A stretch of 64,000 nucleotides of DNA from Actinomycetota bacterium (GTDB taxonomy: Bacteria > Actinomycetota > Acidimicrobiia > Acidimicrobiales > Ilumatobacteraceae), in contig RGCG01000003.1 of NCBI GenBank assembly GCA_009919275.1, positions 5,455-69,454 of the forward strand, given 5' to 3'. The translations under genes were made by a program, and so were the position numbers. Shown one piece after another: positions 60,250 to 62,865 of the stretch. Numbering within the stretch: position 1 is the first letter of the stretch; every line of letters begins with the position of its first letter. The notes beneath the pieces are model-generated. The model worked only from the letters and a program-made list of their open reading frames with translations. It was not told the DNA's origin and searched no databases.

Positions 60250-62865
60250 TTAAATCTGTGTTTCGTCTGAAAGTTTTTTGAGTATGCGGATCACGCGATC
60301 GGCGGCGTGTTCGGGCACTTTGCGCCCGACGCGGTCGGAAATTTCGAAATTGTCGTCGACCAATCCGTCGCGTGTCTGGACGACTGCGTGGTGGACAACA
60401 ACACCGATCTCGCTCAGGGCGTAGCTGATGGCGGCGAGCAGGCCGATTCGGTCGGGCCCGCCGACCCGTAAGACAGAGTGCCACGGGTGAATCGAATTGT
60501 CGATTGCGATACGGGGCGGTTCGCCGGCGATCCGTCGGGCCGTGACGACGAATGTGTCGAGAACGGAGTCGTCGGGCCACGTGGCGAGACTCGCAGAGAC
60601 AACCGAGTGTCCGGCATCCGCGAGCGCACCGGACAATCGCGAGAGAAGACCACGCCTGTTGCGACACGCCACGTTGATCATCCATTGACCGGCAAGAGCT
60701 GTCGGCTGAACGGTGACGCGAACCTTGCGACCGTGCGGAGCGGGTTCGATGAGGCGGGCGTGTTCGAGCAACATCGCGGGTTCGTGGGCGAGCACGTAGG
60801 TCGTTGGCGAGTGGGTGATGCGGTCGACGAGAGCGGGGTCATCGGTGAGACTCTTCGCCTGGCGCCGCCGCATGTCGGCAAGTGAGTCATCGACGCCCTC
60901 GAGCAGTTCGGGATGCGCGAGCAGGCTCTGCACCCCAATCGTGATGTCGATCATTGCCGCGTGCTGCCATGGTTCGAGTCCTCCGATTGCATCGGCGAGG
61001 AGACGACTGCGTTCGACGATTCCGGGACGACGCAACCCGTGGGCAATGTCGCGCAACATCTTGTCGTCGACCCGGTGTGGTTCGTGCTCGACCGCAGCGC
61101 GCAGAATCCGAGCGCCATTCAGAAGGTCCTCAACCTCGCCCGCGATGAGAAGATCCACGTCGAGACGTTGAAGGATGGACGCAGTTGTGTCGGTGCCGGC
61201 GTCGACATCCGCGAGGAACGCCGCGAGCAGCAACGTGTCGCTCTGCGAAGTCGCGACCGCGGTTGCCTCGCGGAGGGTCTCGACGGTCGGAAAACGCAGA
61301 ATGTTCGTCGGGTCGAGTTCCGAAACGTCACTCGCGCGTTCTTTGATTGCGTTTGCGATCTCCGGAATGGTGCGTTCGAACAGTCCGGCAATTTCGAGGA
61401 GACGCCACGATCGTGGAGTCCCGCCACGAAGGACCTCGAGGAGGCGCGTCGTTGCGTCGCGGTTCCACACGAGATCTCGTGTTCGACGTTCGGCGATCCA
61501 GTCGAGGAGCTCATCGCTCGGCTTGTGCTCGCGGGCGAGGAGAGCAGCGGAGAGAAGGACATTCGGAGCAGCCGACGTCGGAGGGTTTGCGGCGAGTGCA
61601 ATGCGTCCGGATTCGACTCGCAGCCAGCCGCCGTCGGGTTCACTGTCGGCATCGACGTCGAGGTCGACTTCGGCCGGACCCTTCGAGTTGATGCGCCACC
61701 GCAGCGCGGCCGGGCTGATGACCGTCGTGGCAAGGACGACAAGGACGAGAGCGGCATGGAGATCGTCGTCGAATACCCCGACTCCCATGCCGATCGTCGC
61801 GAAGATGAGCCCGACTTCGCCACGGGGCATCATGCCGAGGCCGACGAGCAATTTGTCTCCGCCGTTACGGCCCGCGCCCCATCCGGCGACAACCTTCGTC
61901 ACGACGGCCACGGCGATGAGTGCTGCCGCGATGGCGAGAACACTTGGTCGCACCATCGACGCGACATCGGTTTCGATACCGATCTGGAGGAAGAAGACCG
62001 GAACGAAGAGAGCCGCGACTGCGGATACATCCCGTGCAATTCGTTCGTGGGCCGGCGCCTTACCGAGCGCCGCGCCGGCAACAAATGCGCCAATAATGGG
62101 GGCCAACTTTGCCGCGTCTGCGACGCCGGAGTACGCGAGGGCGATACCGACCGCAAACACCGAGACGGCGGCCGGTGACGCCGCTTTCTTTGCCACATAT
62201 CCGATGAGCCGTGGAACGGCCGTGAAGCCGACGGCCGATGCGACCGCGAGGAAAGAGAACGCCGTCAGGGACGTGGTCGCGATGGTGCCGATGCCGATCG
62301 TGCCTTCTTCGACGATGCGCGTGACGATCGTGAGAATGATGAGTCCGAGCACGTCGTCGGCAACGGCCGCCCCGAGGACGATGCGGGCTTCCTTCGTTGA
62401 CAGTGCCCTCAGGTCGCCGAAAACGCGCGCCGTAATGCCGACGCTCGTTGCGGTCAGGGTGGCTCCGATGAAAAGGGCCGTGTTCCCGCTCTCGCCAAGT
62501 GCGAGTCCCGTGAACGACCCGATGGTTAGGGGGAGGGTGACGCCGATGATGGCGACGGTGAGAGCCGAGCGTCCGACGTTGCGCAGTTCGCCAACGTCGA
62601 TCTCCATTCCCACCTGCATGAGAAGCAAGATGGCGCCGAGCTCGCCGAGGAGAAAGAGCGAGTCTGATGGTTCGACGAGGCCGAGCAACGAGGGGCCGAT
62701 GACGACACCGGCGAGAATTTCACCCAGGACCGCGGGGACTCCCACGCGTTCGGCGAACTCGGCGACAACCTTCGCCGTGCACAAGATGAGCGCAAGTTCA
62801 AGGAGGATGCGCCCGAGATCGATACCGGAGGCCGCGCCGGCGGCGAGCACGGTCGAGAGCATCAC
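60250..62865 (-). CDS. Fusion protein: an N-terminal CPA2-type cation/proton antiporter membrane domain joined to a GlnD-like C-terminal module (degenerate HD domain plus two ACT domains, no nucleotidyltransferase domain)
   Basis: The first ~400 aa are multi-TM with Kef/NapA-like motifs ([16 protein letters not shown]; [15 protein letters not shown]). The remainder is colinear with the post-NT part of GlnD ([28 protein letters not shown]...; [13 protein letters not shown] where GlnD has LLHDIGKG). Two ACT-like units follow ([31 protein letters not shown]; [31 protein letters not shown]). Confidence 0.7.

Follow-up and report, generated by a model that had tools for sequence, protein, structure and literature searches.

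A NapA-type cation/proton antiporter fused to a GlnD-derived module with a degenerate HD site in the Acidimicrobiia

The locus and the fusion gene

We analysed a window of 64,000 nucleotides (nt) from an Actinomycetota bacterium of the Ilumatobacteraceae (assembly GCA_009919275.1, contig RGCG01000003.1, positions 5,455 to 69,454), and specifically a gene in it that joins a CPA2 cation/proton antiporter to a segment derived from the PII-modifying enzyme GlnD. On the minus strand the gene order is a 98-residue winged helix-turn-helix (wHTH) protein, the fusion gene, a 155-nt spacer, glnK, amt, amt, glnK and a gene for an FrhB-like protein, and this order is also the commonest one among relatives. 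The positions of the genes, domains and predicted sites are listed in Table 1.

An initial annotation, made from the letters of the sequence, had described one uninterrupted open reading frame (ORF) of 871 amino acids, and this was confirmed. It had also described the anatomy of the product as a CPA2 antiporter followed by a GlnD segment that lacks the nucleotidyltransferase (NT) domain and ends in a degenerate HD domain and two ACT domains, and this was borne out by Pfam, by a match to NapA, by hhalign and by counts of residues across the family. The start codon of the fusion gene is a GTG (or the next ATG), and it overlaps the stop codon of the upstream wHTH gene.

Table 1. Features of the fusion locus; positions are those of the window except in the last two rows, where they are those of the related locus named.
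Feature	Position	Strand	Basis
Whole fusion gene, 871 aa, NapA-type antiporter and GlnD-derived module	60250..62865	-	uninterrupted ORF; single ORF in 77/80 related loci
CPA2/NapA-type cation:proton antiporter domain, residues 29-388	61702..62781	-	PF00999, NapA match, residues D170 D171 K324 R348 E350
Acidic, weakly conserved linker and short beta-hairpin, residues 389-424	61594..61701	-	column conservation; AF2 model
All-alpha region homologous to the GlnD segment after PF08335, residues 425-711	60733..61593	-	hhalign, AF2, dN/dS
Degenerate HD core, residues ~520-625	60991..61308	-	profile alignments; ligand positions T530, A552, D553, D625
ACT1, residues 716-789, with family-invariant ATWPD	60499..60720	-	Pfam ACT, best stretch 729-765
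ACT2, residues 797-870	60256..60477	-	Pfam ACT and ACT_ACR9_3rd at 786-856; AF2 strands/helices, module positions 398-471
Receiver-less OmpR/NnaR-type wHTH protein, 98 aa	62862..63158	-	Pfam Trans_reg_C, E 1e-4
Four 11-nt-phased repeats upstream of the wHTH-fusion operon, predicted operator variant	63183..63220	-	TTCAC-n6-GCAAC-n6-TGAAC-n6-GAGAC
GlnR-type a-b-a-b operator, predicted	60197..60234	-	GCCAC-n6-GTAAC-n6-GCGAC-n6-GAAAC
glnK	59756-60094	-	Pfam P-II; NCBIfam P-II
amt	58282-~59700	-	Pfam Ammonium_transp
amt	56886-~58130	-	Pfam Ammonium_transp
glnK	56523-56861	-	Pfam P-II; NCBIfam P-II
True glnD, locus L084	13665-16025	-	full-length canonical
True glnD, locus L065	13286-15649	-	full-length canonical

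Membrane domain and GlnD-derived tail

The Pfam match of the membrane domain to Na_H_Exchanger has an E-value of 6e-57 (193.7 bits against a cut-off of 26.2). A phmmer search of the PDB sequences matched residues 21-389 to residues 7-372 of Thermus thermophilus NapA, the full length of that protein (PDB 4bwz, 5bz2 and 5bz3; E 1e-61), and in the same search KefC scored only 1e-14. Among the NCBIfam models, the CPA2 subfamily model TIGR00932 reached 159 bits, below its cut-off of 238, and the KefB and KefC models cover the membrane part alone (residues ~20-387). We counted the ion-site residues, and likewise the HD ligands discussed below, in 72 full-length family members, and D170 and D171 (equivalent to D156/D157 of NapA), K324 (K305 of NapA) and R348 and E350 of the PRGE motif are each present in all 72. 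By its sequence and its ion-site residues the membrane part is a member of the CPA2/NapA family. The first description had been "Kef/NapA-type", of which the NapA half stands; a Kef-type identity is rejected on the two E-values given above. K+ and NH4+ are the less likely transported ions, the membrane domain being NapA-like, that is, of the Na+/Li+ type.

The ATSVG, DD, Lys and PRGE ion-site motifs of NapA are identical to those of the fusion protein. NapA, however, stops after the membrane domain (386 aa) and has no cytoplasmic regulatory domain, whereas the fusion protein continues for ~480 residues more. The C-terminus of NapA reportedly lies in the cytoplasm, and we place the tail of the fusion protein there because of this topology. 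In its overall design the protein resembles KefC/KefB and the other CPA2 transporters with KTN/RCK tails, in which a single polypeptide combines a CPA2 membrane domain with a ligand-binding regulatory domain that comes after it and lies in the cytoplasm. The regulatory domain of those proteins is KTN/RCK, but that of the fusion protein is not (searches with Pfam and NCBIfam found no KTN/RCK domain, TrkA_N, in it), and its membrane domain is far closer to NapA.

In the tail, Pfam recognises ACT alone, in two stretches (43 bits against a cut-off of 27), and it gives no match to HD, GlnD_UR_UTase (PF08335) or NTP_transf_2 (PF01909) in the fusion protein. The NCBIfam GlnD equivalogs match residues ~644-856 only and stay far under their cut-offs (NF003467, 73 versus 959 bits; TIGR01693, 66 versus 519 bits). 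With residues 400-871 as the query 48 relatives were found, and true GlnDs appeared just as weak matches (the GlnD P0046, E 2.5e-12). Comparison by hhalign, using a family profile of 29 members, shows that module residues 26-454 are colinear with residues 307-803 of P0046 (probability 99.7%, E 7e-27), and the helical part without the ACT domains still aligns to GlnD residues 331-617 when set against an alignment of 26 true GlnDs (97%, E 9e-11). The Pfam domains of P0046 are NTP_transf_2 at 55-92, GlnD_UR_UTase at 167-294, HD at 405-510 and ACT at 639-684 and 747-795. As the homology begins at GlnD residue ~307, the module corresponds to all of GlnD after PF08335, and the proposed colinearity of the ~450-aa tail with post-NT GlnD holds.

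The profile alignments place LLHDIGK of GlnD on FLADVDAG and HRFPVDVH on LRFPTVETL, reproducing both of the pairings on which the HD dyad (LLHDIGKG to FLADVDAG) and the block upstream of it had been called degenerate. Of the HD metal ligands the first His is kept in none of the 72 members, the HD-His in 7 (absent from 65), the HD-Asp in 72 and the distal Asp/Glu in 41 (absent from 31). The substitutes at the lost positions are varied (A, K, L, S, T, V) with no fixed alternative residue, and no family member has a Pfam HD match. The NT domain is likewise missing, as had been claimed: Pfam finds none, the N-terminus is an antiporter, and NT domains of GlnDs used as tblastn queries had no match in the 64-kb window. 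Motifs of HD or NT that have diverged and are still intact are ruled out by the profile alignments and the per-column counts. By these residue counts the HD site is dead throughout the family, and not just in the allele of the window.

We considered whether the module still removes UMP or AMP from GlnK, or performs some other phosphohydrolysis, through a non-canonical site. D553, the Asp of the HD dyad, is present in all 72 members, a near-invariant R...ELDP lies just upstream of the dyad (R510 and P519 in at least 98% and L517 and D518 in at least 90%), and seven members have a His at the HD-His position. Against this stand the other ligand losses, the variety of the substituting residues and the failure of every member to match Pfam HD, and residual catalysis seems to us very unlikely.

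The AF2 model of the module has a pLDDT of 87 (helical part, pLDDT 86.7 and pTM 0.77). It shows two beta-alpha-beta-beta units, the ACT pair, and the hairpin of the linker as strands E16-19 and E22-25 (module numbering). When the whole module was compared with the PDB using Foldseek, weak ACT matches only were obtained, including aspartate kinase, threonine deaminase, SerB and PGDH; the helical part best matched class II CCA/A-adding enzymes, again weakly (3wfr, E 0.012, TMq 0.52; 9kma; 3h37; 4x4w). There was no Foldseek match at E <= 0.001, GlnD was not among the best matches of either search, and the module sequence had no significant match among PDB sequences. The HD fold is assigned from sequence profiles and not from structure.

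The family has its own invariant motifs, namely ATWPD in ACT1 (T762, W763 and D765 each in 72 of 72), HP.H before ACT2, HHA in ACT2 and LAHPEL in the helical region, and the histidines H793, H796, H825 and H826 are conserved. Two ACT units had been reported as well preserved. Two are indeed present, but ACT1 is not intact in the window, where an in-frame deletion of 69 nt (23 aa; junction 60537/60538) removes its helix alpha-2. The deleted segment is kept in 28 of 28 aligned relatives, including the loci L006-L009 and relatives that are 83-92% identical.

The tail thus shares with GlnD the helices of the HD region, ACT1 and ACT2 in colinear order, and both are associated in genomes with glnK and amt. 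It differs in lacking the NT domain, PF08335 and three of the four HD ligands, in scoring under the equivalog cut-offs, in being fused to a transporter and in coexisting with a true GlnD in basal relatives (see below). The fusion protein is not a GlnD, since it has neither the NT domain nor PF08335, has lost HD ligands and misses the equivalog cut-offs. The plant ACR proteins also carry GlnD-type ACT repeats without a catalytic domain, and the tail has weak matches to ACT_ACR9_3rd and to plant bHLH ACT-like models; unlike the fusion protein, however, they are soluble, consist of ACT repeats only without an HD-like helical domain, and are not fused to a transporter.

Distribution, selection and gene neighbourhood

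A genome scan that took one genome per species gave 80 loci (L006-L085). A single ORF spans the CPA2 domain and the module in 77 of these, and the other three comprise a stand-alone module (L014) and two loci with an apparent frameshift. All 80 appear to come from metagenome-assembled genomes (MAGs) of Acidimicrobiia, most of them labelled Ilumatobacteraceae, Acidimicrobiaceae or Actinomycetota, and the fusion is retained down to 36-40% identity in the module. L006 and L007 are the loci nearest to the window, with module identities of 92% and 89%. We note that L006, L007, L010, L013 and others are titled 'uncultured Bifidobacterium sp.' or 'Acidobacteria bacterium', which look like taxonomic mislabels of MAGs that have this family and Ilumatobacteraceae synteny. 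A profile search of 1.84 billion representatives returned 298 clusters at E <= 1e-30, and of the best 150 representatives (at 50% identity) about 50 have a length of 845-957 aa and a module that begins close to residue 400. Far from being rare, the architecture is standard for the Ilumatobacteraceae and Acidimicrobiaceae MAGs recovered. The initial annotation did not recognise it as described, and we too found no description in the literature searched; the public annotation of one fused member is 'cation:proton antiporter', and fragments of the module are called 'predicted amino acid-binding ACT domain protein' or similar. The exact protein of the window had no entry when it was looked up in public assemblies.

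Ratios of non-synonymous to synonymous substitution rates (dN/dS; Nei-Gojobori, between close pairs) are 0.04-0.10 for the transporter, 0.02-0.09 for the helical region, 0.009-0.11 for the dead HD core and 0.05-0.14 for the ACT pair. Comparison of the window with its closest relative, L006, gives 0.02-0.06 over all domains, and nothing in it points to a relaxation of selection. Constraint on the pseudoenzyme domain is as strong as that on the transporter. The label of pseudoenzyme is itself justified, with three of the four HD ligands lost family-wide and yet a dN/dS of 0.01-0.11. On this sequence evidence the fusion is selected for, and the tail is probably catalytically dead but functional.

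A chimeric join had been raised as something to be checked. That 77 of 80 independent assemblies share the junction within one ORF argues that there is no chimera, and it rules out a chimeric join or a read-through for the family; the fusion is genuine. An assembly chimera, a two-gene read-through or a decaying pseudogene would have some attraction for the window itself, in that its 69-nt loss in ACT1 is accompanied by a frameshifting 65-nt deletion near 55685 in the FrhB/FpoF-like 2x[4Fe-4S] gene (55347-56477, minus strand) by comparison with L007-L009. Neither is found in relatives, and erosion of the locus or local assembly errors might be suspected. They are the only clear window-specific coding deletions in the 14 kb comparable with L007, although two smaller breaks were also seen. 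In addition to the shared junction, however, the 69-nt deletion is in frame and the low dN/dS of the window extends over all domains, and we give an artefactual origin of the fusion almost no credence. The two deletions are either genuine lesions confined to this strain or errors made locally in the assembly, and the FrhB-like gene of the window is correspondingly either a pseudogene or the product of an assembly error.

Canonical glnD genes are present in some of the related loci. In six loci of the basal clade (L065, L067, L069, L071, L079 and L084) a true GlnD of 782-821 aa is encoded at a distance of 2-4 kb from the fusion gene and in the opposite orientation to it, as part of a classic amt-glnK-glnD unit and with the NT, HTYTVDHH and LMHDLGKG motifs intact. 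No canonical glnD was found in the 64-kb window, or within reach at loci other than these six, and a search with the NT half of P0046 gave only matches labelled Actinomycetota or Solirubrobacterales, which are uninformative for the lineage of the window. The presence of a true glnD beside the fusion in basal relatives indicates that the module is a paralogue of GlnD and not simply its local replacement. The family profile scores P0046-type GlnD at 157 bits versus 68-92 bits for the GlnDs of Ilumatobacteraceae, and an origin of the module by recent duplication of the resident GlnD is for this reason not supported. The locus has evidently been rearranged, with glnD lost from it in the derived clades. 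The derived clades have H793, H826 and E841, in place of which the basal clade has L, T/S and A/T, a clade-specific change.

Two further departures from the usual GlnD architecture were encountered in the searches. P0285, P0290 and P0296 (Cellulomonas, Georgenia; ~596 aa, on long contigs) have NT, PF08335 and HD without ACT, which is the opposite truncation, and P0257 (424 aa, on a 2.77-Mb contig) has a P-II domain and the N-terminus of GlnD in one called product.

The glnK-amt-amt-glnK context reported initially was confirmed by Pfam, and the translations show that Tyr51 of the T-loop is kept in both GlnK proteins. The accompanying statement that this is the place where actinobacteria usually keep glnD did not hold; actinobacterial glnD lies downstream of amtB-glnK, and the fusion gene here is upstream of glnK-amt. 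The overlap of the wHTH stop with the fusion start suggests that the two genes are co-transcribed. The wHTH protein matches the C-terminal DNA-binding part of NF005568, a HemD-wHTH (NnaR-type) family, with an E-value of 3e-10, and neither a receiver nor a HemD domain was found in its 98 aa. NnaR is an OmpR-type nitrogen regulator of actinobacteria (PMC6277429). The resemblance of the locus to NnaR and GlnR therefore lies in the DNA-binding end of the wHTH protein and in the a-b-a-b layout of two predicted operators, and the difference in the absence of the receiver and HemD domains from the 98-aa protein.

The operator between the fusion and glnK is 16 nt past the fusion stop codon and ~100 nt ahead of glnK, and the window contains its pattern once, where 0.01 occurrences would be expected. 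In 46 loci GCCAC-n6-GAAAC-n6-GCGAC-n6-GAAA(C/T) is found once per locus, always between the fusion stop and the next gene. A strict search for GTnAC-n6-GnnAC between the fusion and glnK had been negative, and it was an alignment of the intergenic regions that then showed the conserved operator. Upstream of the wHTH gene the position of the repeats is conserved in distant loci, as GTTCAC..GTTCAC..GAAC..GAAAA followed by CGTAC.GT. Both sites fit the published GlnR consensus gTnAc-n6-GaAAc-n6-GtnAC-n6-GAAAc (PMC10704036) and are predicted operators. A generic scan for sigma-70 promoters and terminators gave nothing above the shuffled background. At 63252-63265, at the start of a divergent acyl-CoA dehydrogenase gene, there is a perfect palindrome (TTACC-CATC-GGTAA; TTACCC....GGTAAC in close relatives) that looks like a separate repressor operator.

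The neighbourhood is not uniform across the family. In ~15 genomes, which form a monophyletic and AT-rich clade, the fusion and FrhB are present with no glnK, amt or wHTH gene next to them; in this clade the FrhB-like gene follows the fusion directly (12-73 nt), the invariant motifs of the module are retained, and remnants of the repeats are still found upstream of the fusion. Residues compared against the presence of an adjacent glnK showed only clade-specific, mostly conservative changes. Of the 70 loci with enough flank on both sides to count co-occurrence, 51 carry the wHTH gene immediately before the fusion or module, always with glnK or amt next; neither is present in 14, and in none is there a wHTH gene without glnK/amt. 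This association comes from essentially one clade and is equivalent to a single evolutionary event.

Modules also occur without the transporter. Stand-alone modules of ~456-512 aa (P0019, P0018 and L014) are found in the same locus with no CPA2 gene nearby, and a neighbour-joining tree puts them within fused clades in at least three positions; P0018 begins with the last residues of a CPA2 helix. This nesting indicates that the antiporter was lost secondarily and that the module works without it. An explanation that gives weight to these forms is that the module is chiefly a trans-acting nitrogen sensor that works on GlnK/Amt or on the wHTH protein, for example by sequestration at the membrane, with the antiporter being independent or an anchor. 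The stand-alone modules keep their position in the order wHTH, module, operator, glnK-amt, having arisen at least three times from fused ancestors, in one case with the helix end still attached. The overlapping wHTH stop and fusion start, the restriction of wHTH genes to loci with glnK/amt and the flexible, poorly conserved linker can be read in the same way, and in GlnD it is the HD domain that receives modified PII. The restriction, though, amounts to a single event as noted above, and the clade that has no adjacent glnK, amt or wHTH still keeps the invariant motifs of the module. Moreover, a trans-acting role leaves unexplained why the fusion is maintained in 77 of 80 loci together with its transport residues, and the presence of the latter in all 72 members, along with strong purifying selection, indicates that the membrane part is no mere anchor. 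We regard a chiefly trans-acting role as unlikely, although it is the strongest of the alternatives to the explanation given below.

The ACT pair could alternatively sense a cue that has nothing to do with nitrogen (pH, an ion or a different amino acid, for instance), with the link to glnK-amt being a gene order inherited within one bacterial order and devoid of functional significance. All of the loci belong to one lineage, so that shared synteny is weak evidence, and in one clade the fusion has outlasted the loss of glnK and amt from the locus. ACT domains bind many ligands, as the enzymes matched with Foldseek illustrate, and H793, H796, H825 and H826 could suit the sensing of pH. But the module is specifically derived from GlnD and is not a generic ACT pair, the GlnR-type repeats ahead of the fusion operon have been preserved and have left traces even in the clade without glnK-amt, and nitrogen genes have been kept at the locus through several rearrangements. 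A non-nitrogen cue is in our estimation rather improbable.

A proposed role linking nitrogen status to cation/proton exchange

The explanation we favour, and hold tentatively, is that a sensor of nitrogen status, presumably of glutamine, gates the antiporter, the dead GlnD-derived tail having been placed on an active NapA-type transporter. The membrane domain would be an active NapA-type antiporter of monovalent cations and protons, most likely Na+(Li+)/H+. The two ACT domains would bind a metabolite that reports nitrogen status, and the conserved but catalytically dead HD-like helical domain would transmit the state of the ligand. The flexible acidic linker would carry this signal to the transporter, and cation/proton exchange, and hence cytoplasmic pH and ion balance, would follow nitrogen status. 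What we say of the identity of the ligand, the direction of regulation, the ion specificity and any contact with GlnK is presumptive. Glutamine is our best guess for the ligand, by analogy, because the ACT domains of GlnD, which have reportedly been proposed as its glutamine-sensing part, are held to sense it.

Several observations weigh against gating in cis. The linker of ~25 residues is the least conserved segment of the protein (mean column conservation 0.43, the lowest of all regions, with the least conserved stretch at residues ~396-424), which is as compatible with a tether as with an allosteric coupler. The stand-alone modules in the same locus suggest that the module can function without being covalently joined to the transporter, in which case gating in cis would not be its sole role. 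The AT-rich clade shows that the fusion can be kept where glnK, amt and the wHTH gene are not adjacent to it. No HD-domain protein is among the 50 best Foldseek matches of the helical part, for which the best E-value is not below 0.012. Finally, the allele of the window lacks helix alpha-2 of ACT1, and sensing may be impaired in this strain.

Gating of the antiporter by nitrogen status can be taken one step further. The dead module may be a receptor for the state of the PII system (glutamine and/or modified GlnK), and so a new output of PII/GlnD that directly gates Na+/H+ antiport and thereby influences cytoplasmic pH and how well ammonium is retained. Transcription of glnK-amt might be under the control of the module too, by way of the wHTH protein, and in the derived clades, including the organism of the window, it may act in cells without the GlnD enzyme. 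This extension is speculative and, we think, improbable as a whole. The fusion resembles AmtB-GlnK, which is encoded in the same gene cluster and is likewise a transporter tied to nitrogen status, as we propose for the antiporter, in its physiological logic only. The sensor of AmtB-GlnK, however, is a separate PII trimer that plugs the channel, whereas here a GlnD-derived module is covalently attached to the antiporter and contact with PII is hypothetical.

NapA-type antiporters are used as model structures in the study of Na+/H+ exchange and are regarded as lacking a regulatory tail, and regulation of CPA2 transporters is known mainly through KTN/RCK domains. A regulatory domain made of a pseudoenzyme that descends from GlnD, the master nitrogen sensor, would be a third design for this group of transporters. 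If nitrogen-status gating is correct, it links nitrogen status with cation and pH homeostasis, for which we know of no dedicated molecular connection so far. Such a connection is plausible because ammonium assimilation releases protons and the retention of NH3/NH4+ depends on pH. The family would also be a clean case of an enzyme turned sensor, with the fused, stand-alone and GlnD-coexisting states all found in related genomes. Many of the MAGs that carry it come from lake and river metagenomes, and its function would bear on the nitrogen ecology of those waters.

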